DNA of 32,000 bases, from positions 480,001-512,000 of the forward strand of contig CP066689.1 of NCBI GenBank assembly GCA_016432445.1, given 5' to 3'. Origin of the DNA: Candidatus Saccharimonadota bacterium. Lineage in GTDB: Bacteria; Patescibacteriota; Microgenomatia; UBA1406; GWC2-37-13. The notes beneath the pieces were generated by a model that was not told where the DNA came from, made no database searches, and saw only the letters and a program-made list of their open reading frames with translations. Shown piece after piece: positions 3 to 29,699 of the stretch (positions within the stretch are counted from its first letter, which is position 1; each line of letters opens with the position of its first letter). The position numbers and the translations under genes are program-made.

Positions 3-314
3 AAAGGAATTGGAGAATATTTAGGATGGGATGATATTATCTCTCCAACTTTTGTTGTTTACTATGAATATCCTCTATTAAAGAAATTTTCTTTTAAAAA
101 ACTTTATCATTTTGATCTTTATCAGCTTACTGATACTGAAGAGTTTAAATATTTAGGAATAAATGAGATATTAAATGATAAAAATATTTTATGTATTGAA
201 TGGGGCGAAAAAGCAGGGGAGATAATGGAACTTTTAAAAAAGAAATCGAAAATTGTTTATGTGAACATGAAGTATGTTGATGAAAAGAAAAGAAAAATAA
301 TAGTTAATTATTAA
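3..314 (+). CDS. tsaE: tRNA t6A37 biosynthesis ATPase TsaE (YjeE family), C-terminal part; the 5' end lies outside the window
   Basis: The frame is open from the window edge to TAA at 312-314. The translation (..ISPTFVVYYEY..LYHFDLYQL..ILCIEWGEKAGE..) carries the SPTF and HxDLY(R/Q)L motifs typical of TsaE. It ends 4 nt before tsaD. Confidence 0.7.
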   Translation, partial: KGIGEYLGWDDIISPTFVVYYEYPLLKKFSFKKLYHFDLYQLTDTEEFKYLGINEILNDKNILCIEWGEKAGEIMELLKKKSKIVYVNMKYVDEKKRKIIVNY

Positions 315-318
315 ATTT

Positions 319-1407
319 ATGAAAATTTTAGCAATTGATACATCTTGTGATGAAACATCAGCCGCGGTTGTTGATGGCAGGCGGGTTTTATCAAACGTCA
401 TTTATTCCCAGGTGCTTTTGCATAAAAAGTGGGGTGGAGTAGTGCCTTCAATTGCCAAGCGGGCTCATGAAGAAAGAATTGATTTTGTGGTTGATGAGGC
501 ATTAAAAAAATCCAAATTTCAAATTTCAAATGTCAAACATTCATTTGACATTTGTCATTTAGATTTTGACATTAAAAATTCAATGAGCAAGATTGATTAC
601 CTTGCCGTTACCTATGGCCCTGGGTTGGCAGTGGCGCTTGAGGTTGGTATAAAAAAAGTAAAAGAATTATCAAAAAAATATAATAAGAAAATAATTCCGG
701 TAAATCATATGGAGGGGCATATTTATTCCTGTTTTACTCAAAATAGCAAAGGAAATCCCAAAAGAGAATTTACATTTCCTTATTTAGTTCTTTTAGTTTC
801 TGGCGGTCATACGGAGATAGTTTTATGGAAAGATTATCTTGATTTTCAAATCATTGGCAAAACCACGGATGATGCAGCTGGCGAAGCATTGGATAAAGCG
901 GCAAAAATGTTAGGTCTTGGTTACCCTGGAGGACCAGTTATTGAGAGATTAGCTGAGGAAGCAGGAAATGTTGATCCTTACAAATTTCCCCGTCCAATGA
1001 GAAAATCAGGAGATTTAAATTTTTCTTTCTCCGGATTAAAAACAGCTTTTTATTATTTCTTGCAAAAAATGCCGGAGGAAGAAAAAAATAAAATGATTAA
1101 AGAACTGGTTAGTTCATTCCAAGAAGCGGTTTTTGATTCGTTGCTTATAAAAACTGAAGCGGCTATTAAACAAATAGGAATTATTAATTTAGTTGTGGCC
1201 GGTGGAGTAGCAGCCAATCGTGAACTTAGAAAAAGAATGAAAAATTTAGCTAAAAAATATAAAGGCTCTGTCGTTTATCCTCCTTATAAATATTTAAACG
1301 GTGATAATGCGGCCATGATCGGCGTCGCCGCTTTCTTTAAAGCAAAGGCGGGAATATTTGTTAAACATATCGAAGCTTTCGACCGCATCCCAAGATTGAG
1401 TTTATAA
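319..1407 (+). CDS. tsaD: tRNA N6-adenosine threonylcarbamoyltransferase TsaD (Kae1/Gcp family)
   Basis: The N-terminus is MKILAIDTSCDETSAAVV. The metal-binding motif NHMEGH, SGGHTE and the C-terminal AGGVAAN motif are all present. Length is 362 aa. A roughly 21-aa repeat-encoded insertion lies at 513-575. Confidence 0.95.
   Translation: MKILAIDTSCDETSAAVVDGRRVLSNVIYSQVLLHKKWGGVVPSIAKRAHEERIDFVVDEALKKSKFQISNVKHSFDICHLDFDIKNSMSKIDYLAVTYGPGLAVALEVGIKKVKELSKKYNKKIIPVNHMEGHIYSCFTQNSKGNPKREFTFPYLVLLVSGGHTEIVLWKDYLDFQIIGKTTDDAAGEALDKAAKMLGLGYPGGPVIERLAEEAGNVDPYKFPRPMRKSGDLNFSFSGLKTAFYYFLQKMPEEEKNKMIKELVSSFQEAVFDSLLIKTEAAIKQIGIINLVVAGGVAANRELRKRMKNLAKKYKGSVVYPPYKYLNGDNAAMIGVAAFFKAKAGIFVKHIEAFDRIPRLSL
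513..575. repeat. Nine 7-nt-phased repeat units forming an inverted array, in frame inside tsaD
   Basis: The units are caaattt caaattt caaatgt caaacat tcatttg acatttg tcattta gattttg acattaa (9 x 7 = 63 nt = 21 codons). The core palindrome is caaatgtcaaa (527-537) paired with tttgacatttg (544-554). The same 18-mer, caaatttcaaatgtcaaa, occurs at the sufB/sufD junction (10041-10058). Confidence 0.85.
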
Positions 1408-5514: not shown

Positions 5515-7467
5515 ATGATAATCAATATGACAGATGAAAAGTTAAATTTATCAAATCCCGTTCTTCCTGACTCAGACGGATATAGGTTACAAACACTTGC
5601 TACTCATTTTGAAAAGAGAAAACCTTATTTTGAAAAAATATGGAAAGAAAAAACTCAGACTTTAATCAATCAGCAACCTCAAGTCGGAGATGGTGAAATA
5701 AATTACGTTCTTTGCGGTTCCAATGTTTATACAGCCTTAGCTATTGCTGATAAATCAGAAGAGATTGTAGTTAAAGATGGAAAGGTTGAAAAAAGAGCAG
5801 TCCAAGTATCACCTTTAACTAAAGCTGGTTTGACAATACCTTTGCTTATTCCCGGAGATGTGGATGCGGTTTCAATAAAGGAAAATTTTGATTTAAAAAT
5901 GCCTTTTGATGTTTCAAAACCTTCCACCAGTTTATTTTGGAAATGTATGCCTGAAGGTATGAGAATGATGGTTCATAGTATAAATGGACAAGAAGTATAT
6001 ACGGTTCATCCTGTTGATAATTTTGTCTTCAGACTAGTAGCCCAATTCATTGGGGGAAGTGACCATTCAATAGATAAAATACCTAAAAAACTTGATCAAA
6101 TTTTGAGATCTTTATCCGAAACATGGTCAATGTCTGAGATTAGGCAAAGAGCGATTGAAGCAATAAAGGCATTAAGTGGTTATAGACAACTGTCAAATGA
6201 ATCTATACAGAAGAGTAAATTTCTCATTGACTTGAATATGAATCAGCCAATTCAATATGAGTCAGAAATAAATGTTGAAGATTTCTTACCATCGACGTAT
6301 GGTCCTTTAAAATTTGCAAGAGAAAGAGGATTAACTGATGAACTTCCAACTTTAACGAATTTTCTTGATTCTCTCTCAGGTTCACATGAAAATGTTTCTA
6401 AAGAATCTCGCGCAGCACGGATAACCAATTACTTAAACTCAAATGAATATATTGATAAGCTTCAAAGATTTGATGAACGACATCGATCAGAAGTAATTGG
6501 ATTAACCACTGAGTATTTTATTCTTCATCCAGATGGTCAAGGCGCTGATGATTTTGTTAGAGATCTTCAAAAGGTAGATTTAGGGGATTATGAAAAGGAT
6601 CATAAAATTTCTAAATTATTAGCTGATTCAATTGCTCAAAGATTAGGAATAAATGACGTGACATCAAGAGAGGCAGTAGAACAAATATATAATTACTACT
6701 TAGATAGTGTCATTGTAAATGGAGTTTATTTTCATAGTTTTAATGGCGCTTTTGAATTATCAATAAGAGCAAATGGTTTAACTACAGATCAACGATTATG
6801 GGACTGGGAAGAATTAAGAAGAATAAGCGAGATTGGGGAAAAAACTGGACGAAGTATGTTATTAGGATGGGGATCACTAAATTCAAAAGGTAATATTTCC
6901 TATGCCTCAACTACGAGAGATTCATATAGGTATGCTGTAGCTTCTCCAGAATGGTTTGCGCAGTTTGTAAGTGAGGGTTTTCATATTCCCAATAATGAGC
7001 CTCAAAAAAAAGCATATTACAGAGGTGATTATGAACAGGCAAAACAAAATATTGAAGAATTATGTAATAAGATGCAATCTTCTCGACAAGAAGACATAGA
7101 TGCTCGAAAGTCTTATTCTAATATCTCAATGGAAGAACGAACGGAAATTCTTAGTTTCTTTGAGAAATATTGGAAAGTGTTTAGAGGAACAAATAGTCAG
7201 CCTTGTTTAGCATTGATTAATTGCAGTATGTTTGATGATGATCCAGTAAATTATCCAGCGCATGTAAAAGAAGATTTTGGTTCTTTAACAGAATATGTAC
7301 GAGATTATATGCACAGTGCTGGTAATAATCCTAAAGTTTTTGAGATAATTAAAAGTTTAAGATACAATATTAGTGGTGGTGTTGACAAACAAACCGAAGT
7401 TAATATTTCTCCTGAAGAAATAGAAATTGTGAAGCTACCTGAATATTCAAAAGTCTTTCCTAAATGA
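5515..7467 (+). CDS. Hypothetical protein, about 646-650 aa, with no recognisable motif
   Basis: This is a long uninterrupted ORF with host-like composition. No signal peptide or TM segment is visible. The alternative start ATG 5527 is favoured if the TATACT box at 5509-5514 is the promoter. Confidence 0.6.
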   Translation: MIINMTDEKLNLSNPVLPDSDGYRLQTLATHFEKRKPYFEKIWKEKTQTLINQQPQVGDGEINYVLCGSNVYTALAIADKSEEIVVKDGKVEKRAVQVSPLTKAGLTIPLLIPGDVDAVSIKENFDLKMPFDVSKPSTSLFWKCMPEGMRMMVHSINGQEVYTVHPVDNFVFRLVAQFIGGSDHSIDKIPKKLDQILRSLSETWSMSEIRQRAIEAIKALSGYRQLSNESIQKSKFLIDLNMNQPIQYESEINVEDFLPSTYGPLKFARERGLTDELPTLTNFLDSLSGSHENVSKESRAARITNYLNSNEYIDKLQRFDERHRSEVIGLTTEYFILHPDGQGADDFVRDLQKVDLGDYEKDHKISKLLADSIAQRLGINDVTSREAVEQIYNYYLDSVIVNGVYFHSFNGAFELSIRANGLTTDQRLWDWEELRRISEIGEKTGRSMLLGWGSLNSKGNISYASTTRDSYRYAVASPEWFAQFVSEGFHIPNNEPQKKAYYRGDYEQAKQNIEELCNKMQSSRQEDIDARKSYSNISMEERTEILSFFEKYWKVFRGTNSQPCLALINCSMFDDDPVNYPAHVKEDFGSLTEYVRDYMHSAGNNPKVFEIIKSLRYNISGGVDKQTEVNISPEEIEIVKLPEYSKVFPK

Positions 7468-8646: not shown

Positions 8647-10036
8647 ACAGACTAACATAAATTTTGAAAATAAATATGGTTTCTCCATGCCGGAAAATTA
8701 TGCGCTCAAACCTGAAAAAGGTATTAGCCAGTCTGTGGTAGTCAATATTTCCCAATTGAAAAACGAACCTGAGTGGATGAAAGAGTTTAGGCTCAAAGCC
8801 TATGAAATTTTTCTTCAAAAGTCAATGCCAAAGTGGGGGCCGGATTTATCCAAAATCAATTTTGATGATATCTACTATTACATAAAACCTACAAAAGACA
8901 GAGCTAAAAGCTGGGAAGAGTTACCGGCAGAAATCAAAGAAACTTACGACCGTATTGGTATGCCTGAAGCTGAAAAGAAATACCTATCCGGTGTAAGCGC
9001 TCAGTATGAGAGCGAGGTAGTTTATGAAAGCATTAATCGTGAACTTAGCAAGAAAGGTGTAATTTTTTGTGACATGGATACAGCAGTTAAAAAATATCCG
9101 GAAATCGTTAAAGAATACTTTGGTAAATTAATTCCACCTCATGATAATAAGTTTGCCGCTTTAAACTCAGCAGTTTGGTCAGGTGGTTCATTTGTTTATG
9201 TTCCAAAAGGGGTCAAGGTTGATCTGCCCATGCAGGCCTATTTTAGAATTAACGCCGAAAAATTCGGGCAATTTGAAAGGACACTTATTATTGCAGAAGA
9301 AGGCAGTAGTTTTCATTATGTTGAAGGATGTACTGCGCCAGTTTACACGACTGATTCTCTTCATGCGGCAGTAGTTGAAATTTTTGTTAAAAAAGGGGCC
9401 AGAGTTCGGTATACTACCGTTCAAAACTGGAGTAAAAATGTTTTTAATTTAGTAACTAAGAGAGCAAGAGCTGAGGAAAACGCTCTCATTGAATGGGTAG
9501 ACTGCAATATCGGTAGTCAAATTACGATGAAATATCCCTGCGTTTATCTTATGGGAGAAGGCGCCCGAGGAGAAATGCTCTCTGTTTCGTTTGCCGGAGC
9601 TGGTCAAGCGCAGGATACTGGCGCCAAAATGATTCATTTTGCCTCTAATACTTCCTCGCGGATTATAGCCAAATCAATTTCTAAAAATGGAGGGAGGGCA
9701 TCATATCGTGGTTTAGTGCAGGTGATGAAAGGCGCCAAGAACTCTTCAGTTCATTCATCCTGTGATGCCTTAATTATCGATGAAGATTCCCGCTCTGATA
9801 CTTATCCTAGCTTAAGAAGTCAAGAAAATAATACTCAGATTGAGCATGAGGCAAAAGTTGAAAGATTATCCGACGATAAACTTTTTTATTTGACTTCACG
9901 TGGAATTAAAAAGTCTGATGCTGAGGGATTATTAGTTAATGGATTTATTGATCCGGTTTCAAAAGAAATTCCCCTTGAGTACTCAATAGAGTTAAACAGA
10001 TTAATTAATTTGGAGATGAGCGGAAGCGTCGGTTAA
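8621..10036 (+). CDS. sufB: Fe-S cluster assembly scaffold SufB
   Basis: This is a typical SufB sequence over its full length (AVWSGGSFVYVPKGV, VEGCTAP, NWSKNVFNLVTKRA, GRASYRGLV and others). The track start at 8621 is TTG. ATG 8630 or 8636, overlapping the sufC stop, are equally plausible. Confidence 0.93.
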   Translation: MKKMVMANKQTNINFENKYGFSMPENYALKPEKGISQSVVVNISQLKNEPEWMKEFRLKAYEIFLQKSMPKWGPDLSKINFDDIYYYIKPTKDRAKSWEELPAEIKETYDRIGMPEAEKKYLSGVSAQYESEVVYESINRELSKKGVIFCDMDTAVKKYPEIVKEYFGKLIPPHDNKFAALNSAVWSGGSFVYVPKGVKVDLPMQAYFRINAEKFGQFERTLIIAEEGSSFHYVEGCTAPVYTTDSLHAAVVEIFVKKGARVRYTTVQNWSKNVFNLVTKRARAEENALIEWVDCNIGSQITMKYPCVYLMGEGARGEMLSVSFAGAGQAQDTGAKMIHFASNTSSRIIAKSISKNGGRASYRGLVQVMKGAKNSSVHSSCDALIIDEDSRSDTYPSLRSQENNTQIEHEAKVERLSDDKLFYLTSRGIKKSDAEGLLVNGFIDPVSKEIPLEYSIELNRLINLEMSGSVG

Positions 10037-10076
10037 ATGTCAAATTTCAAATGTCAAATCAATATCTAAAATCTAA
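10035..10076. repeat. 7-nt-phased repeat array spanning the sufB stop and the sufD start
   Basis: The units are aaatgtc aaatttc aaatgtc aaatcaa tatctaa aatctaa. The sufD ATG (10051) lies inside one unit. Confidence 0.75.
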
Positions 10077-10716: not shown

Positions 10717-11943
10717 ATGATAAACGTTAATCAAATAAAAAAGGATTTTCCGATTTTTCAACATGATCCCAGTTTGGTTTATCTGGATTCTTGCGCTACA
10801 TCTCTAAAGCCAAAGCAGGTGATTGATAAAATCGTTGAGTATTATTCACAGTACTGCGCTAATATAATGCGGGGGATCTACAAGATATCAGAAAAAGCTA
10901 CGGAAGAATATGAAGATACGAGAAAAGTAGTTGCAGAATTTATTAATGCCTATAAGCCTGAAGAGATTATTTTTACTCGAAATACTACCGAGTCAATTAA
11001 TCTAGTGGCTTATGCTTTGGGTAGACAGATTATTGACTCTGACAGTGAAGTAATTACTTCTATTATGGAACATCACTCCAACTTTATTCCCTGGCAGCAG
11101 CTGGCTTTTGAGAATGCCGCACTTTTGAAAGTTATTGATGTTGATGAAGAAGGCTGCTTAAAAAATATGGATAGGCTTGAACAAATAGTCACTAAAAAAA
11201 CAAAAATTCTGGCTTTAACTTACGTTTCCAATGTTTTTGGGACAATTAATCCAATTAAAGAAATAGTAAGAAAAGCAAAAAAAATAAATCCTCAAATAAT
11301 TACAGTGATTGATGCGGCTCAGGCAGTTCCTCATTTTAAAGTTGATGTTCAAAATTTAGGGTGTGATTTTTTGGCCTTTTCTTCACATAAGATGTTTGGT
11401 CCAACCGGAGTAGGCGTGCTTTGGGGCAGATATGATTTACTTGAGAAGATGTATCCTTTCCAGTACGGCGGTGAGATGATTGAAGAAGTAACTTTGGAAA
11501 AAAGCGTTTTTCAAAAACCACCTCATAAATATGAAGCAGGAACTCCTAATATTGCTGATGTAATCGCTTTTAAAGAAGCAATCTTTTATCTAAAACAAAT
11601 AGGCGCTGACAATGTTAGAACTCATGAAAAAAATTTAACATATTATGCCTTAAAAAGATTAAATGAAGAACTGCTGGGAAAAATAAAGATATTTGGTCCA
11701 AGAAAAGCGGATGACAGAGTAGGCGTTATAAGTTTTTCAGTAAGTGGAGTTCACCCGCATGATATTGCTCAGTTTCTTGATGAAAAAAATATTGCTATTC
11801 GTGCCGGTTATCATTGCGCAATGCCGCTTCATTTTTTTCTAAATGAAGGGGCAACAGCCAGAGTCAGTTTTCAGGTGTACAATAGTGAGGAAGACGTTGA
11901 TAAGTTAGTTGAGGAATTGAAAGAAGCGATAAGAACCTTTTAA
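10717..11943 (+). CDS. sufS: Cysteine desulfurase SufS (class V aminotransferase)
   Basis: The PLP lysine block is SSHKMFGPTGVG and the catalytic Cys block is RAGYHCAMPL. It lies in suf context. The start is placed at ATG 10717; the track start GTG 10690 lies in the hairpin element. Confidence 0.92.
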   Translation: MINVNQIKKDFPIFQHDPSLVYLDSCATSLKPKQVIDKIVEYYSQYCANIMRGIYKISEKATEEYEDTRKVVAEFINAYKPEEIIFTRNTTESINLVAYALGRQIIDSDSEVITSIMEHHSNFIPWQQLAFENAALLKVIDVDEEGCLKNMDRLEQIVTKKTKILALTYVSNVFGTINPIKEIVRKAKKINPQIITVIDAAQAVPHFKVDVQNLGCDFLAFSSHKMFGPTGVGVLWGRYDLLEKMYPFQYGGEMIEEVTLEKSVFQKPPHKYEAGTPNIADVIAFKEAIFYLKQIGADNVRTHEKNLTYYALKRLNEELLGKIKIFGPRKADDRVGVISFSVSGVHPHDIAQFLDEKNIAIRAGYHCAMPLHFFLNEGATARVSFQVYNSEEDVDKLVEELKEAIRTF

Positions 11944-11947
11944 TATG

Positions 11948-12017
11948 AAATCCAAATATCAAAATCCCAATGTCAAAAAAATTCATTTGGCATTTGATAT
12001 TTGAAATTTAGATTTTT
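11948..12017. repeat. 7-nt-phased inverted repeat array in the sufS-sufU spacer
   Basis: The units are aaatcca aatatca aaatccc aatgtca aaaaaat tcatttg gcatttg atatttg aaattta gattttt. The left and right halves are near reverse complements. It belongs to the same caaatgtcaaa family as 513-575. Confidence 0.8.
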
Positions 12018-12020
12018 ATT

Positions 12021-12398
12021 ATGTCAATGTATCAAGATATTATCTTAGACCATTATCGAAATCCAAGGAATTTTGGGAAGCTTGAAAAAGCCGATCATAC
12101 GGTTTCTGTATCCAATCCTCTTTGCGGTGACAAGATCTCAATGGAGATAATTGAGGAAGGAGACATTATTCATAACATTGCTTTTTCTGGAGAAGGCTGT
12201 GCTATATCAAAGGCAGCTGCCTCAATGCTTACAGAATATGTAAAAGGAAAATCAAAAGATGAGTTGCGAAAATTGGATAAAAGTTTTATCATGGAAATGT
12301 TAGGATTGGAACTTAGTCCAAATAGGATTAAATGCGCGCTTCTCTCATGGGAAGCGCTTATTAAAATTTTAAGTTCAACGCCGCTCACAGCGGGGTAA
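12021..12398 (+). CDS. sufU: SufU/IscU-type Fe-S cluster scaffold or sulfur-transfer protein
   Basis: Present are NPLCGD, GEGCAIS and RIKCALL (three conserved Cys). It lies downstream of sufS. Confidence 0.88.
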   Translation: MSMYQDIILDHYRNPRNFGKLEKADHTVSVSNPLCGDKISMEIIEEGDIIHNIAFSGEGCAISKAAASMLTEYVKGKSKDELRKLDKSFIMEMLGLELSPNRIKCALLSWEALIKILSSTPLTAG

Positions 12399-12673: not shown

Positions 12674-12682
12674 TAATTAATA

Positions 12683-12738
12683 GTTCTGGGTTTTGAGTTT
12701 TGAGCCCATAACCCATAACTCACAACTCATAACTAATT
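12683..12738. repeat. 7-nt-phased inverted repeat array in the ferredoxin-korA spacer
   Basis: The units are gttctgg gttttga gttttga gcccata acccata actcaca actcata actaatt. The array ends exactly at the korA ATG. The left units are largely complementary to actcaca/actcata. Confidence 0.8.
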
Positions 12739-14460
12739 ATGACTAAATTCTTGTGGAAGATTGGCGGGGAAGCCGGTTTTGGAATAATGACATCAGGTGT
12801 AACTTTTGCTAAAATAGCAACGAGGTCAGGCTATCACATCTTCGATTATGCCGAGTATCCTTCTTTAGTCCGCGGTGGACATAACACTTATGAAGTTTTG
12901 TTTTCTGAAGAGGAGGTTTTTGCTACTCAAAAAAAGATAGATCTTCTCATTTGTTTAAACCAAACGACTTATGATTTTCATAAATCACGATTAGACTCTA
13001 ATTCTTTGGTAGTTTATGACAACGGGATGTTTGAAATAAATGATAATATTGTCAAAGTCCATCTGCCTTTTAAATCCATTCTTCAAGAACTTAATGGACA
13101 GCAAGTAATGATGAATACTATAGTACTTGGCGCGACAATGGCGCTACTTGAGGGAGACATTAATCTTCTTTATTCTATGATTGAAGAACAGTTTCAAAGG
13201 AAAGGAAAAGAGGTTGTTGATTATAACAAACAGTTTGCTCAAAAAGGTTATGAGTATATAAAAAATAATCACCCGGATAAGATAAAATCAATACTTATAA
13301 AAAAAGATGAAAAAGAAAAATTGGTAATGACCGGGAATGAGTCTTTTTCCCTAGGAACAGTAACAGCTGACTGCAGACTTTATGCAGCCTACCCCATGAC
13401 TCCTGCTTCATCAATTTTGACAGTGCTGGCTCAGTGGCAAAATCAGACAGGCATGATTGTTCGGCATGCAGAAGATGAAATTGCTGTTATTAATACAGCC
13501 TTGGGTTCTTCACAATCGGGCGCAAGATCAGCAGTAGGTACATCAGGCGGAGGATTTGCTTTGATGACTGAGACGATATCTTTTAGCGGTACAGCTGAAT
13601 TGCCATTAGTAATATTTTTGGGTCAAAGACCAGGTCCAGCAACAGGTATGCCTACCTGGACGGAACAGGGAGATCTTCTTTTTGCTTGTTACAGCGGACA
13701 TGGAGAGTTTCCAAAAATTGTTTTAGCTCCAGGTGATATTGATGAGATGTTAAAACTAACAGTTAAAGCTTTTGATTTAGCTGATATATACCAAGTGCCT
13801 GTAATTATTCTTGCAGATAAACTGCTTTGTGAATCCCACAAAAGCCTTGATAAAGAACAAGCGATGTCATTTATGACAAATTATCAGCCTAACCGAGGGA
13901 AAACAGTTTGCTCCCCAACGGATAAACCGTATTTAAGATATAAACTTAGTGATGATGGGATATCAGAGAGGTTAATTCCTGGGGTTCAAGGCTCATTTTA
14001 CCAATCAAACTCTTATGAACATATAGAAGACGGACACACAACTGAGCAAAGCAAACCGCGGTTTGAGCAGGTCAATAAAAGAGGGAAAAAAATTAATACT
14101 TATTTAACTAAGGACTTTGATCTGCCTGCAGTTTATGGAGATGTAGAAAATGCTAATATTGTTTTTGTCTCTTGGGGTTCAAATAAGGGAGCAATTTTAG
14201 AGGCACAAAAAATTTTATATGCTCAAGGAACAAAATCGGCTTTTATTCATTTCACTCATGTTTACCCCATTGATAGTAACAAAGTTAATGGTTTGTTTAG
14301 CAAAGACAAAAGATATATTTTAATTGAGAATAACTCTCAGGCACAGTTTGGTCAGTTGTTACGAATGCAAACAGGAGTTGAGATTAAAGAAAAGTTTTTG
14401 AAATATGACGGAAGACCGGTATGGGTAGAAGAGATTGTAGATTATATTAAAAAACATTAA
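12739..14460 (+). CDS. korA: 2-oxoacid:ferredoxin oxidoreductase, fused gamma-alpha subunit
   Basis: The N-terminal gamma-type domain is GGEAGFGIMTSG..YPSLVRGG. It is followed by the alpha domain (YAAYPMTPAS, EDEIAV.NTALG, GGGFALM). It is paired with a TPP-binding beta subunit. Confidence 0.85.
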   Translation: MTKFLWKIGGEAGFGIMTSGVTFAKIATRSGYHIFDYAEYPSLVRGGHNTYEVLFSEEEVFATQKKIDLLICLNQTTYDFHKSRLDSNSLVVYDNGMFEINDNIVKVHLPFKSILQELNGQQVMMNTIVLGATMALLEGDINLLYSMIEEQFQRKGKEVVDYNKQFAQKGYEYIKNNHPDKIKSILIKKDEKEKLVMTGNESFSLGTVTADCRLYAAYPMTPASSILTVLAQWQNQTGMIVRHAEDEIAVINTALGSSQSGARSAVGTSGGGFALMTETISFSGTAELPLVIFLGQRPGPATGMPTWTEQGDLLFACYSGHGEFPKIVLAPGDIDEMLKLTVKAFDLADIYQVPVIILADKLLCESHKSLDKEQAMSFMTNYQPNRGKTVCSPTDKPYLRYKLSDDGISERLIPGVQGSFYQSNSYEHIEDGHTTEQSKPRFEQVNKRGKKINTYLTKDFDLPAVYGDVENANIVFVSWGSNKGAILEAQKILYAQGTKSAFIHFTHVYPIDSNKVNGLFSKDKRYILIENNSQAQFGQLLRMQTGVEIKEKFLKYDGRPVWVEEIVDYIKKH

Positions 14461-14463
14461 ATC

Positions 14464-14519
14464 GATTCACGATTCATGATATAAGATTCATGAATCATAA
14501 ATCGTAAATCTTGAATCAA
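14464..14519. repeat. 7-nt-phased inverted repeat array in the korA-korB spacer
   Basis: The units are gattcac gattcat gatataa gattcat gaatcat aaatcgt aaatctt gaatcaa. The outer units are complementary at 15 of 17 positions. Confidence 0.8.
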
Positions 14520-14523
14520 TATT

Positions 14524-15366
14524 ATGGATGATTTTAATGCTTATGCGCCGACATGGTGTCCGGGTTGCGGTGATTGGGCGATAGGAGTAGCTTTAAAACA
14601 AGCGCTGACAGGCTTAGGTTACAGTCCATCATCTGTGAATATGGTTTTTGATATTGGCTGTTCGGGCAATATGAATGATTTCATAAATGCCTATGCTGTT
14701 CATGGTCTTCATGGCCGGTCAATCCCGGTCGCTATCGGGATGAAATTAGCCAATCACAAAATGCCGGTTTTAGTTGTTGGCGGAGATGGTGGTATTTACG
14801 GTGAGGGAGGTAATCATTTTATACATGCCTGCCGCGGCAATCATGATATTACTGTTATTGTTCATGATAATGAAGTTTATGGTTTAACCACCGGACAAGC
14901 CGCACCGACTTCATCCAAAGGCATGAAAACCAAGTCAACACCGACAGGTTTAATAGAGTCGTCTCTTAATCCATTGGCTATTGCCATTACTCAAGGAGCA
15001 ACTTACGTTGCCAATACGTTTACCGGTGACATTAAAGGAGTTGTGGAGATCATAAAGCAGGGAATAAGCCATAAAGGTTTTTCTTTAATTAATATCCTTC
15101 AGCCTTGTATTTCCTTTAATAAATTCAATACATATCAGTATTTCAATGAGCACTCTTATAAATTGGATGAAAAGCATAACAAAGCAGACTTTAACAGTGC
15201 TTTGATTAAGGCTATGGAGATGAGCACTGAAAAATATCCACTGGGAGTTCTTTACCAAGTCGAGAAACCAGCTTATCATGAACAGCTTACCCAGCTTGTT
15301 GCAGGCGCCTTGATAGAAAACAAACGATATGAAAATTTTGGCGGTTTAATAAAAGAGTTTTTTTAA
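14524..15366 (+). CDS. korB: 2-oxoacid:ferredoxin oxidoreductase, beta (TPP-binding) subunit
   Basis: Present are WCPGCGD, DIGCSG and the TPP motif GGDGG.YGEGGNH. Confidence 0.9.
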   Translation: MDDFNAYAPTWCPGCGDWAIGVALKQALTGLGYSPSSVNMVFDIGCSGNMNDFINAYAVHGLHGRSIPVAIGMKLANHKMPVLVVGGDGGIYGEGGNHFIHACRGNHDITVIVHDNEVYGLTTGQAAPTSSKGMKTKSTPTGLIESSLNPLAIAITQGATYVANTFTGDIKGVVEIIKQGISHKGFSLINILQPCISFNKFNTYQYFNEHSYKLDEKHNKADFNSALIKAMEMSTEKYPLGVLYQVEKPAYHEQLTQLVAGALIENKRYENFGGLIKEFF

Positions 15367-17918: not shown

Positions 17919-18946
17919 ATTCTTCTTTTTATCTGCAGGAATATATTTCTTAGTTTATTGAGTACGTTATAGAGCCTATAAAGTTTATTGTTTATCACTA
18001 GGTCAAAAGTGCCCATCATTTGTATATAGTCTCCTCCATAGCCTTCTTTAAACTTAGTGAATCCAACATAATCATCATTTCCCTGGTAATTAGGTGCTAA
18101 TGAACCCCACATATCAAAATTTTCGGCTCCTAGTTTTTTTCCTAGTTTGATAGCTTCCCACATCAAAAGATTAGCTCCCATTAAATTACGGTGCTTTAAA
18201 GATGAACCGCCGTAAGCATAGTAAAGAGTTTTGTTGAAATAAAAAAGTTCGTAAGCGGCAAGAGGAGTATTTTCATAATAGGCAATTAAAATATGGGAAA
18301 GATCATTTTTAAGAGTTTCCCAAACTGTTTTATGATAATCAGGATTGTGTCCAAAATATCCTTGACGGCGGCAGGTATCGAAGTAAAGTTTACTGAAAAT
18401 TTCAAAGCCTTGATCTGTAGATTCTTCTTTGACCATGACGCCTTTTTTTTCAGCTAGTCTTATATTGTATCTAGTTTTTTGTTTCATTTTGGCCAGAAGT
18501 TCCTCCTCTGTTTGTTTCAAATCAAGTAAGATTGTCCATTCTGTGAAGAGAGGTTGAGGGGATTTTATTATCGTTGATCTTAGATCTAAGATCTTAGATC
18601 TTTGAGCAATTGTTTCATTAGGTTCGAGTTTTATGAATATAACATTATTTTTTTTGCCAAGATCGGTTAAAAAATCCACAACTTCTTGTGAAGGAAAATT
18701 GGATTTTGGTAGATATCCTACTTTATAGGACGTGTATGGGATTTTGTGTAGGGTTAATTGATAAACGTTTTGTAGGGACAGGTCGCGACCTGTCCTTACA
18801 TCATTATTTTCAAATTCACCAATCCTAACAACCTTAATGCCCATTTTTTTCCTGGCTTCGCCCCACTGCCAAGATTGCAAAGGATGAGGGGCTTTTTGGT
18901 TATACAATTCCTGATCAAAATCAGATCCAATTATCTTAACGTCCAT
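17915..18946 (-). CDS. FemAB/FemX-family peptidoglycan aminoacyltransferase
   Basis: Blocks typical of the FemAB family are present: [23 protein letters not shown] and FDMWG. The start is placed at ATG 18946. The track start at 19012 would overlap the upstream GT4 gene. Confidence 0.8.
18576..18605. repeat. AGATCT-based 7-nt-phased palindrome inside the FemX-like CDS
   Basis: The sequence is gatcttagatctaagatcttagatctttga. The 20-nt perfect palindrome agatctaagatcttagatct is at 18582-18601. Positions 18582-18605 are identical to intergenic 29453-29476. It encodes RSKILDLRS. Confidence 0.85.
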
Positions 18947-18960: not shown

Positions 18961-20064
18961 TTATGAAGTTTGCTTTATTATTTCCAGAGTTTCTTGGGCG
19001 CACTTTTCCCACGAGAAAAGCTTGACTCGTTCAAGACCTTTTTTGATCAGGTCTTTTCGAGTATTTTCATCTTTTAAAGCCATAATCTCATCAACTAAAT
19101 CGTTCACATCATCAGGAGTAAGATAAAGGGCGGCTTCTCCGCCAATCTCGGGAAGACTTGAGGAGAAAGAAGTAATAACCGGACAAGAGTAGGACATGGC
19201 CTCTAAAATAGGTATGCCAAAGCCTTCATAAAGCGAAGGAAGAACAAAACAAAAGGCTTGAGAATATAAGGCCGCCACTTCATCATCTGGCAGATAACCT
19301 GTAAAGATTACTTTATCCTCAAGGCCAAGGTTTTTAACTTGATTAAAAATTTCATTATAAAGCCAGCCTTTTTTTCCGACCAGAACTAATTTCCAGCCTT
19401 TTTCAGTTTCTGAAACTTTTTTAAATCCTTCAATAAGAACTTCTAAGTTCTTTCTCGGTTGGAGAGTTCCAACATAAAGTATGTAGTTCGTGGTTCGTAG
19501 TTCGTAGCGAGATAATATTTTTTTTACTAAAGATTGAGAAGGAGAAGTTTTGGCTTTGAAGCCGTTGTAGACGACATCGATTTTTTCATCAGGCGTTTGA
19601 TAAAACTTAACAATATCTTTTTTAGTGTTTTTAGAAACGGCAATAATTTTTTTAGATTTTTCAACAGCTAGTTTTGTCCAATTTTCAAGTTTATACAAAT
19701 CTTTTTTTAAAAATTCTTGAGGATAGTAAAAATAAGAAAGATCATGGATGGTTACAACAATAGGAACAGGGCAGAAGCGGGGAGTGTAGTGAGCTGGCGA
19801 AAAGAAGACGTCAATTTCTTTTTTTAAATATAGATTTAAAGGCAAAAATATTTGCGACCAAAGGAACTTTCCCGGTACAATTATGTATTTAAAATGTTCT
19901 GATTGTTTAGGCAGAAAATCTTTTGGCTCATCTCTCAAATAGATGCGAAACTGTAATTCTTCTTTTGCTTCTTTGGAAAAATATTCAAGCAGGGATAAAG
20001 TATAGACTGATACTCCAACCTGTTCATTCACATTTGCTTCATTGCCGTCAATGCCTATGATCAT
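18961..20064 (-). CDS. GT4-family (GT-B fold) glycosyltransferase
   Basis: Present are ILYVGTLQPRKN and the C-terminal E-x7-E region PSLYEGFGIPILEAM. Confidence 0.85.
   Translation of the reverse strand: MIIGIDGNEANVNEQVGVSVYTLSLLEYFSKEAKEELQFRIYLRDEPKDFLPKQSEHFKYIIVPGKFLWSQIFLPLNLYLKKEIDVFFSPAHYTPRFCPVPIVVTIHDLSYFYYPQEFLKKDLYKLENWTKLAVEKSKKIIAVSKNTKKDIVKFYQTPDEKIDVVYNGFKAKTSPSQSLVKKILSRYELRTTNYILYVGTLQPRKNLEVLIEGFKKVSETEKGWKLVLVGKKGWLYNEIFNQVKNLGLEDKVIFTGYLPDDEVAALYSQAFCFVLPSLYEGFGIPILEAMSYSCPVITSFSSSLPEIGGEAALYLTPDDVNDLVDEIMALKDENTRKDLIKKGLERVKLFSWEKCAQETLEIIKQTS
19485..19505. repeat. Three tandem heptamers (agttcgt ggttcgt agttcgt) in frame inside the GT4 CDS
   Basis: The 21 nt equal 7 codons and encode ELRTTNY on the minus strand. 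The same gttcgtN heptamer is repeated in the intergenic region at 29297-29326. Confidence 0.75.
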
Positions 20065-29264: not shown

Positions 29265-29272
29265 AAATATAA

Positions 29273-29281
29273 ATTTTAGCA
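29273..29281 (-). promoter_or_regulatory. Extended -10 element (TGcTAAAAT) 8 nt upstream of the PBP1A ATG
   Basis: The minus strand reads ctgcTAAAATttatatttATG. There is no SD. Confidence 0.5.
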
Positions 29282-29296
29282 GAAAAGATAAATTAT

Positions 29297-29326
29297 GTTC
29301 GTAGTTCGTCGTTAGGAGTTCGTCGA
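29297..29326. repeat. Tandem heptamers gttcgta gttcgtc gttagga gttcgtc
   Basis: The 7-nt phasing is read directly from the sequence. It is the same unit as in the GT4 CDS at 19485-19505. Confidence 0.75.
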
Positions 29327-29351
29327 CCCTGGAATGTTAACCTATAGCAGT

Positions 29352-29380
29352 TTGACTTCAATTTTTACTTTTGTTAGAAT
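29352..29380 (+). promoter_or_regulatory. Strong orphan promoter: TTGACT-N17 (with TGn)-TAGAAT
   Basis: TTGACT is at 29352-29357, TGt at 29372-29374 and TAGAAT at 29375-29380. No start codon lies within 100 nt downstream of the predicted TSS. The next plus-strand CDS starts at 29740. Confidence 0.6.
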
Positions 29381-29442
29381 GGGACTTTCTATAAAGCACT
29401 TTGACAATCTATTTAACTCGTGGGGAGGAAATCTGAAGCAAT

Positions 29443-29484
29443 CTAACATCAAAGATCTAAGATCTTAGATCTTTGATCTGAGAT
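29443..29484. repeat. Six 7-nt-phased units containing a 26-nt perfect palindrome
   Basis: The units are ctaacat caaagat ctaagat cttagat ctttgat ctgagat. The perfect palindrome caaagatctaagatcttagatctttg is at 29450-29475 and contains three AGATCT sites. Confidence 0.85.
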
Positions 29485-29573
29485 GAAATTAAACTTTAAG
29501 AAGTTTTTAAAAGCATAAAATCTAAATAGAGTTTGAGATTTTAGATTGTATCAGGCTCGTCTCCTCACGGAAA

Positions 29574-29699
29574 GATTGGTTGATGGCTTATTGGAGATTT
29601 AGTCGTGAGTCGTTAGTCATGAGTCGAGAGAAAAAAAATCTTAAGACGAATGACTCAAGTCTCAAGACTCTTAAGTATCCAGCAAGCCATCAATCAGTC
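29574..29699 (+). other. Imperfect hairpin of about 125 nt immediately upstream of the cassette's first gene
   Basis: The outer helix pairs 29574-29594 with 29679-29699: 17 Watson-Crick pairs, 3 G-U pairs and 1 mismatch over 21 positions. The inner arms are heptamer arrays, agtcgtg agtcgtt agtcatg agtcgag (29601-29628) and gactcaa gtctcaa gactctt (29652-29672). Confidence 0.6.

Follow-up and report, generated by a model that had tools for sequence, protein, structure and literature searches.

An in-frame heptamer-phased palindromic repeat in the tsaD gene of an uncultured bacterium and its probable kinship with dispersed intergenic elements

The palindromic elements of Rickettsia (RPE; Ogata et al. 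2000, as summarized in PMC10969869) are described there as dispersed repeats, located between genes and also in frame within housekeeping genes, where they are translated. Heptanucleotide arrays form a second class: in Xanthomonas and Nostoc, GGGANTN arrays can be found as inverted pairs as well and differ from one close relative to the next (PMC4692102), TAACTGA arrays are found in the Beggiatoaceae (PMC4679880), and the general excess of 7-nucleotide (nt) repeats is credited in these two papers to Mrazek and colleagues (2007). The present work concerns a stretch of 32,000 nt from Candidatus Saccharimonadota bacterium (assembly GCA_016432445.1, contig CP066689.1, positions 480,001 to 512,000), hereafter the window, with a G+C content of 35%. 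Its tsaD gene carries a quasi-palindromic insert built of 7-nt units at positions 513-575. This insert is read here, with a probability of roughly 0.7, as a translated and tolerated copy of a dispersed, A/T-rich heptamer hairpin element of about 60-66 nt which normally resides in intergenic spacers. It combines two known kinds of repeats, the Rickettsia palindromic elements and the heptanucleotide repeats, in a new form.

The likeness to the RPE, as far as the cited summary characterizes them, lies in palindromes present both between genes and in unrelated housekeeping genes, with a peptide compatible with the fold of the host protein. The RPE differ by a size of about 100-150 bp, a family consensus, a conserved peptide and the lack of 7-nt units, and they are not known to pile up at one site across species. 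The element of the window is 60-66 nt long, heptamer-phased and flanked by duplications of 9-10 nt, and belongs to the Candidate Phyla Radiation (CPR)/Patescibacteria; it works like an RPE and is not one, being shorter, heptamer-built and from another phylum. With the heptanucleotide arrays (the short tandemly repeated repetitive sequences, STRR, of Calothrix and Nostoc, the GGGANTN arrays of Xanthomonas and Nostoc, and those of the Beggiatoaceae) it shares 7-nt units with fixed and variable positions, a distribution over many loci, mostly between co-directional genes, an occasional arrangement as inverted pairs able to form stem-loops, and strong variation of length and sequence at a given site among close relatives. 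Following the definitions used for STRR and long simple sequence repeats, the arrays described here are mainly intergenic (about 15-fold) and length-variable at orthologous sites, and the tsaD insert contains at least three head-to-tail 7-nt units (3.6 and 4.6 copies). The known arrays are described as under-represented within coding sequences and are unreported within essential genes, whereas about 40% of those described here lie in frame at recurrent loops; the units are moreover A/T-rich (CAAANNT type) and occur in Patescibacteria. No description of heptamer or palindromic repeats in CPR bacteria or Roizmanbacteria, or of such arrays in essential genes, was found in a literature coverage that was limited and is no proof of novelty.

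The host gene and the parts of the insert are the following.

319 to 1,407, + strand: tsaD coding sequence, 362 amino acids, host of the insert (open reading frame, ORF, call)
513 to 575, + strand: heptamer-phased quasi-palindromic insert (phasing, Tandem Repeats Finder and folding)
513 to 540, + strand: left, A-rich arm of four units, CAAATTT CAAATTT CAAATGT CAAACAT (Tandem Repeats Finder; the relative L081 has the same unit at the same site)
541 to 575, + strand: right, T-rich arm of five units, TCATTTG ACATTTG TCATTTA GATTTTG ACATTAA, a degenerate inverse of the left arm (Tandem Repeats Finder, 70% matches)

The original prediction, made from the sequence alone, of a palindromic repeat phased by 7 nt within tsaD is borne out by several measures. 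Identity at a lag of 7 nt amounts to 0.61, whereas the remaining lags between 1 and 12 average 0.27, and Tandem Repeats Finder returns two period-7 arrays, one at 513-537 (3.6 copies, 94% matches) and one at 542-573 (4.6 copies), the latter being considered degenerate because of its 70% matches. The hairpin has a perfect core of 11 bp, in which 527-537 pair with 544-554, and the folding energy of the insert as RNA is -15.7 kcal/mol (z = -3.1 versus shuffles). In the window as a whole, CAAATGTCAAA is present 13 times with at most one mismatch versus 1.8 expected, a count reached in none of 100 shuffles. Period 7 is the sole enriched tandem period, with seven arrays; every remaining period between 4 and 12 has 0-1, and shuffles give 0.04. 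A length of 63 nt and 21 codons had also been claimed: the heptamer register of 513-575 holds, while the codons of KFQISNVKHSFDICHLDFDIK actually span 514-576, position 513 being the third base of a Ser codon.

The 81-nt region of the insert is open in one of the six frames, which is the one used by tsaD, and each of the other five holds two to four stops. A perfect repeat in the right arm would place an in-frame TGA at 553-555, where TGT is found instead; out-of-frame TGA and TAG triplets are retained in the same arm. As far as the sequence can tell, the insert is translated. The relatives used for comparison were the 80 most similar genomic loci (at most 69% identity), almost all of them labelled Roizmanbacteria, Microgenomates or Patescibacteria. 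In 79 of these 80 independent genomes the tsaD frame runs uninterrupted across inserts of 9 to 162 nt (in the remaining one, L068, no ORF was obtained by the extraction used, and the alignment excludes this locus), and all 120 database proteins run at full length across the insert region. It is in view of these data highly improbable that the segment is missing from the protein as the result of an assembly artefact, a pseudogene lesion, or its removal or bypass at expression: the insert is in frame, stop-free in the used frame only, with the potential TGA replaced, and the rest of the protein keeps every invariant residue. Bypass of hairpins is known in a few systems, such as gene 60 of phage T4 and the 'byps' of yeast mitochondria.

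The assignment of the host protein is firm. It is 100% identical to QQG44774.1, annotated as TsaD on a 1.10-Mb contig of an uncultured bacterium, and PF00814 (TsaD/Kae1/Qri7) is the precomputed domain of this identical protein. Matches to TsaD entries of the Protein Data Bank reach E = 6.7e-77, and Foldseek relates the model of the window protein to 3zet, 8ifx and 4wq5 with E of about 1e-34, the TM-score to YgjD being about 0.84 on the query and about 0.90 on the target. All invariant residues of a 98-sequence alignment are conserved, including the columns H130, H134, D329 and W38-G39-G40, and among them the two metal-binding His and the Asp; the roles of the metal-binding His-x3-His/Asp and of the aromatic-GGVVP hairpin motif are those given in PMC13276492 and PMC11648230. 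The catalytic residues are intact.

The position of the insert within this fold is compatible with tolerance. The AlphaFold model, built on the 98-sequence alignment, has an overall pLDDT (predicted local distance difference test) of 92, falling to about 52 over residues 71-80, and places the insert in a loop between a long helix (43-67) and a strand (94-100). In Aquifex TsaD (8iey), the nearest solved structure, an alignment gap of 20 residues coincides exactly with the insert. Helices alpha2 and alpha3 of TsaD build a helical bundle with TsaB (PMC11648230); helix 43-67 corresponds to alpha2 and is the one that packs against TsaB. The tip of the alpha1-alpha2 hairpin, which bears the aromatic-GGVVP motif (residues 38-43 in the window protein), holds the tRNA anticodon loop (PMC13276492). 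In the model, the insert hangs from the C-terminal end of the helix, opposite to this tRNA-binding tip and away from the active site. A flexible surface loop is thus strongly implied by the model for the approximately 20 extra residues, in agreement with the tolerated surface-loop insertion that had been proposed, and mapping onto the structure indeed locates the insert in a low-confidence loop at a helix-strand junction, opposite a gap in the solved structures. This loop is presumably neutral for TsaD function, tolerated rather than useful.

Two further loci of the window are related to the insert.

11,948 to 12,017, + strand: sister element located in the spacer of sufS and sufU, matching both arms of the tsaD insert in collinear order (alignment and folding)
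10,035 to 10,076, + strand: array of this unit family with a single arm, running across the stop of sufB and the start of sufD (shared 18-mer)

The left arm, the loop and the right arm of the tsaD insert all align with the spacer element (11945-12020), and do so in both orientations, with scores of 66 and 63 compared to a mean of 15.8 and a maximum of 28 for shuffles. The spacer element also folds as RNA (-18.8 kcal/mol, z = -3.6). The 18-mer at 520-537 is identical to 10041-10058 of the second array, which does not fold. The membership of the insert in the same family as these intergenic elements, claimed on the basis of the 18-mer, is thus confirmed, and the motif does recur within the 32 kb. 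Two full-length copies and one partial copy of the family are present in the window. At 10034-10058, the sufB stop and the sufD start fall within TAAATGTCAAATTTCAAATGTCAAATCAA, where two ATGs stand 14 nt apart in different frames; this looks as if the native start region had been duplicated by two units.

As to the route by which the tsaD copy arrived, insertion with duplication of a 9-10-nt target is preferred and held slightly more likely than not. The insert is bordered by a direct repeat.

500 to 508, + strand: left copy of the flanking repeat CATTAAAAA, made of native Ala-Leu-Lys codons (flank comparison)
570 to 578, + strand: right copy of CATTAAAAA (flank comparison)

These flanks match at nine of nine positions, and an exact 9-mer is found in 0.03% (0.0003) of random window flank pairs. 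The sufS-sufU element is bordered by TTTTAATATG at 11938-11947, with the sufS stop, and by TTTTATTATG at 12014-12023, with the sufU start. These match at nine of ten positions; a 10-mer with at least nine matches occurs in 0.17% (0.0017) of random window flank pairs. Removal of the spacer element together with one copy of the repeat leaves TAATATGTCAAT, which is exactly the compact stop-start junction of three relatives (L036, L022, L017). The comparison of these sequences gives what appears to be the classic pattern of a filled versus an empty site, as produced by insertion with target duplication. The run of A following CATTAAAAA comprises seven residues at the left copy and five at the right. 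A similarity of 13 nt reaching as an inverted repeat into the conserved ALKK codons may consist of the target-repeat copy and A-rich sequence rather than of an extension of the element.

The sequence of events can be proposed as follows. A copy of the element would have been inserted into tsaD, duplicating the 9-10-nt target, and selection would then have kept only an in-frame, stop-free version, one further single-base change being needed. Such selection for a stop-free frame would explain the TGT that replaces the TGA of the right arm. The same site would additionally change by three-unit slippage, and would be permissive for inserts in over half of the related species.

The comparison of orthologues shows a variable segment at this position. 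Between the conserved His (H50) and the GPG motif, the window protein has a distance of 53 residues; in 198 orthologues it lies between 27 and 81, with modes at 31-33. The closest relative compared at the DNA level (L083, protein P0003, 72% identity) has no insert and reads ...GTCAAAGATTTTTCAAAAATTGAT... at the site; of the other two proteins in the top three by similarity, P0004 (70%) is likewise free of an insert, and P0002 (73%) carries a short insert without repeats. Extra residues at the site are present in 42 of the 80 relatives. They are unrelated in sequence among species, consisting of heptamer arrays in some and of other palindromes elsewhere. The site is a permissive hot spot throughout the lineage, and the orthologue alignments contain no conserved segment of the same length, the presence of which had been named beforehand as speaking against a repeat insertion.

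Slippage at the site is documented by relatives with related sequences. In L007 and L015 the site reads AAAAAA(A)TTTTCAAT (KKFSMK / KKFSIK) with a single TTTTCAA unit, and in L002 it reads AAAAAATTTTCAATTTTCAATTTTCAATTTTCAATG (KKFS-IFNFQFS-MK) with four such units, a gain of 21 nt and seven residues. L081 holds (AAATTTC)x4, consistent with three added units and identical in unit to the left arm of the window. The exact three-unit gain of L002 over L007 and L015, with that of L081, can be taken to demonstrate growth and shrinkage by slippage in steps of 21 nt. This agrees with the earlier argument that only unit numbers divisible by three keep the frame. The insert had been said to have invaded the gene or expanded in it, and both wordings find support, the former in the flanking repeats and in the empty sufS-sufU junction, the latter in the three-unit growth of relatives.

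These data also sustain an alternative in which the insert grew in place: a one-armed array arising from the native Lys-Lys-Ser/Phe codons (AAAAAATCC / AAATTTC) would have expanded by slippage, gained the inverse arm through fold-back or a template switch at the self-complementary AAATTT core, and come to resemble other arrays by gene conversion between them. Besides the expansions of native codons in L002 and L081, it is consistent with the arrays of L009 and L014, which begin with the same AAAAATCCAAA, with the spacing of the flanking repeats, which is exactly ten units, and with the self-complementary cores (AAATTT, AGATCT) held by the units of palindromic arrays. Exact matches of at least 16 nt, found in 7.5% of array pairs within a genome versus 1.6% between genomes, are compatible with conversion. 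The collinearity with the sufS-sufU element nevertheless spans both arms and the loop, and the empty and filled states of that junction are clean, with a 10-nt duplication carrying the sufS stop and the sufU start. The heptamer inserts of L081 and L082 at the tsaD site are one-armed and do not fold, so that these inserts of relatives are ruled out as hairpins like that of the window, and no array is present in the relatives with the three most similar proteins. Growth in place is on balance a possible but rather unlikely origin for the window insert.

Several observations weigh against insertion of a dispersed and translated element. No transposase, RAYT (REP-associated tyrosine transposase) or other mobilizing gene is present among the ORFs of the 32-kb window. 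The target duplication is judged on two full copies, and 13 other palindromic heptamer arrays (two of the window, eleven of other species) have no comparable flanking repeats, which discards target duplication as a general trait of such arrays and also suits growth in place. A distance of 70 nt separates the two copies of CATTAAAAA, which equals ten heptamers and exceeds a multiple of three by one base, so that a simple insertion would shift the frame and one more single-base change is needed; this repeat could also be a remnant of the array periodicity. Arrays of the same unit at the tsaD site of relatives clearly grew in place. Finally, translation is deduced from the frame and from stop avoidance, and the absence of a clash with TsaB or TsaE from a model of TsaD alone.

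A different explanation would hold that the tsaD message or DNA keeps a hairpin or a protein-bound heptamer array at this point for some purpose, for instance pausing, processing, stability or regulation, with the peptide as a by-product. Folding at the site is indeed frequent: among 40 orthologous inserts with a length of 33 nt or above, 19 fold at z < -2, compared to 8 of 80 control segments from the same genes. A 28-nt hairpin, GTAGGGAACAAA-N4-TTTGTTCCYTAC, occupies the TsaD site in nine species (L043, L004, L011, L025, L006 and L204-L207; e.g. L043:10193-10220). It is 99% paired among them; one pair appears as GU in four, GC in three and AU in two, and two pairs are changed on both sides. 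The latter changes are, however, confined to the L006 lineage, and the pairing could result from selection for the hairpin or from self-templated correction of the palindrome. In-frame palindromes of 138-162 nt are found at the site in three relatives (L008:10193-10354, L024:4741-4902, L003:6072-6209), with folds at z between -5.7 and -8. Of the four matches to their core GAGTGAACTCG in 1.35 Mb, three fall within tsaD; these long palindromes are for this reason regarded as site-bound, and were rejected as dispersed elements. Against a selected hairpin stand the many species without an insert, those at the modes of 31-33 residues, the approximately half of inserts that are unfolded and the unrelated sequences of the site inserts. 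Rfam gives no match for the arrays and no terminator-like signal is present on the sense strand. A function of this kind is accordingly held to be improbable for the window insert.

Two further observations were made on TsaD inserts. The tsaD heptamer array (AAAGTCT) at L056:10193-10252 is broken by two G+C-rich mini-hairpins, TCCCGCATGACGGGA and TCCCGCTCTGCGGGA, and resembles small dispersed repeats that Elhai is said to have described in 2008, nested in heptamer arrays of Nostoc. A second and weaker insertion hot spot of TsaD lies near window residue 251 (after YFLKK), with 6-26 extra residues in 12 of the 80 relatives, some of them carrying REP-like peptides such as NHVIPVPIRGQAPAGIQLNGSPIRSG.

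The distribution of arrays was surveyed in 1.35 Mb comprising the window and relatives. This survey yielded 87 arrays of period 7, 32 of period 8 and at most 15 at any other period; the 32 period-8 arrays indicate that the preferred period is not strictly seven across the lineage. Of the period-7 arrays, 36 (about 40%) are inside ORFs, and arrays are about 15 times denser outside long ORFs than within them. An inverted partner is found nearby for 71% of intergenic arrays versus 19% of those inside ORFs. Such a partner being rare within ORFs, the two-armed tsaD insert has the architecture of an intergenic element placed in a gene. Almost all in-ORF arrays (33 of 36) are A-rich on the coding strand, a bias that is predicted from stop-codon avoidance. 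Period-8 arrays (CAAATAAN, CGTTAACN), also arranged as inverted pairs, were noted in L015, L016, L028, L043, L004 and others (e.g. L015:9862-10001).

In several further proteins, whose names rest on sequence motifs and synteny, in-frame heptamer arrays are found repeatedly at a single fixed position. A protein of roughly 590-620 amino acids, taken as oxidoreductase alpha from its size and gene order, has such an array in eight species, a protein of roughly 430 amino acids in seven and a protein of roughly 900 amino acids in two. Among the ORFs located 5' of tsaD, a cluster of seven has a TsaE-like YYEY...DLY motif, and five of them carry an array at this motif (YYEY to HLDLY); the ORF is probably a TsaC-TsaE fusion. 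Four arrays in three species are located in the probable interdomain linker of GT4-like glycosyltransferases, identified by likeness to the Pfam GT4 of the window. In most relatives the junctions of sufS with sufU and of oxidoreductase alpha with beta are compact; in others, unrelated arrays or palindromes fill them. A broader scheme would be a lineage-wide A/T-rich heptamer (octamer in some genomes) system in Roizmanbacteria-type CPR, in which arrays copied between sites by a target-duplicating mechanism are kept as hairpins, serve a selected role instead of being neutral, and settle again and again in given loops of certain core proteins (TsaD, TsaC-TsaE, pyruvate:ferredoxin oxidoreductase, glycosyltransferases) and in given gene junctions. 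This scheme is advanced as an unlikely and very tentative one. If true, the selected role could for instance involve binding by a heptamer-reading protein, the processing of messages or the pace of translation, or the creation of diverse loops by 21-nt steps.

Exact copies of the window 18-mer are carried by more than 120 metagenome contigs (G+C contents of 26-61%), for the most part in intergenic CAAATNN arrays. Its use as a marker of the source genome is ruled out, as this array type is widespread across G+C. The 18-mer is also part of a dispersed repeat that is no array and whose flanks are conserved, CTTAGTGACCCTTACTCTAAGTCTATGC-18mer-ACAACTTAAAAGACC, in L085, L086, L091 and about 40 more WLWI/WLWD contigs; this repeat appears to be an unrelated element from another organism.

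Three other described systems were considered in the light of this survey. Repetitive extragenic palindromes and their paired forms (REP/REPIN; PMC3116915) are similar in being short imperfect palindromes, dispersed, largely extragenic and organized in families within a genome. They are not heptamer arrays and are mobilized by RAYT, which is not found among the ORFs of the window; with the tsaD copy and the 36 of 87 arrays inside ORFs, this rejects an assignment of the tsaD element as REP/REPIN. Miniature inverted-repeat transposable elements share a small size and lack of autonomy, inverted ends, target-site duplications and occasional in-frame ORF fusions; they typically measure 100-400 bp and have defined terminal inverted repeats and a cognate insertion sequence family, whereas here the whole element is a 60-nt array palindrome. 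We know of no description of REPINs with target duplications or in-frame insertions. The units of in-ORF repeats in the Borg study reportedly measure a multiple of three; with the present 7-nt unit, only three-unit steps keep the frame. What the Borg tandem repeats (PMC9879509) have in common with the present arrays is their fast evolution within ORFs and the addition of flexible segments to proteins.

The remaining arrays of the window are listed below.

12,682 to 12,734, + strand: palindromic heptamer array of another unit family (AGTTTTG / CATAACT), 5' of the pyruvate:ferredoxin oxidoreductase alpha gene (fold z = -3.9)
14,455 to 14,526, + strand: palindromic heptamer array filling the alpha-beta spacer of the same oxidoreductase (the junction is compact in most relatives)
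18,576 to 18,605, - strand: in-frame heptamer array (GATCTWA) in a FemAB-family gene (length-variable linker in comparison with orthologues)
19,483 to 19,507, - strand: in-frame one-armed array in a GT4 glycosyltransferase, peptide YELRTTNY (length-variable linker)
29,297 to 29,670, + strand: non-coding stretch with four arrays, at 29297-29323, 29441-29484, 29601-29630 and 29652-29670 (folds z = -3.5 and -3.7)

The FemAB array is 93% identical over 29 nt to the intergenic segment 29448-29476, located 11 kb away, and other unit families of the window likewise occur at two places each. Positions 29265-29649 comprise 385 nt devoid of ORFs, in which three unit families make up at least four heptamer arrays and Rfam has no match; a promoter-like TTGACT-17-TAGAAT is present at 29352-29380 of this stretch. 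At gathering thresholds, Rfam recognizes a tRNA alone in the window and no RNA family over the arrays, and scans for promoter and terminator consensus sequences around the intergenic arrays performed no better than on shuffles.

The gene environment is housekeeping in nature. The end of a TsaE domain lies just 5' of tsaD (window 3-314), and the upstream gene is a TsaC(Sua5)-TsaE fusion in relatives (L081:8835-9917, L083:8923-9990). The window further encodes an Rrf2 regulator, SufCBD, SufS, SufU, pyruvate:ferredoxin oxidoreductase, Lon, the FemAB-family protein, several glycosyltransferases and a penicillin-binding protein. A 650-residue ORF at 5515-7467 has no Pfam match. No obvious Shine-Dalgarno sequence is visible by eye 5' of the starts at 319, 12021, 12739 and 14524, several of which adjoin or fall within hairpin arrays.

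The finding means that a repeat unit indivisible by three can still colonize a near-universal, normally essential enzyme in a genome of 1.1 Mb, and the variable sites map the positions at which TsaD and several further core proteins accept between 7 and 55 additional residues. Heptanucleotide arrays and in-frame palindromes of the Rickettsia type, which belong to separate literatures, become linked. For annotation and alignment-based phylogenomics of the CPR, caution is called for, as repeat-derived segments at these sites are not homologous between species. Should the arrays prove mobile or functional, they would represent a new and very small class of elements in a phylum whose genome dynamics are little known.

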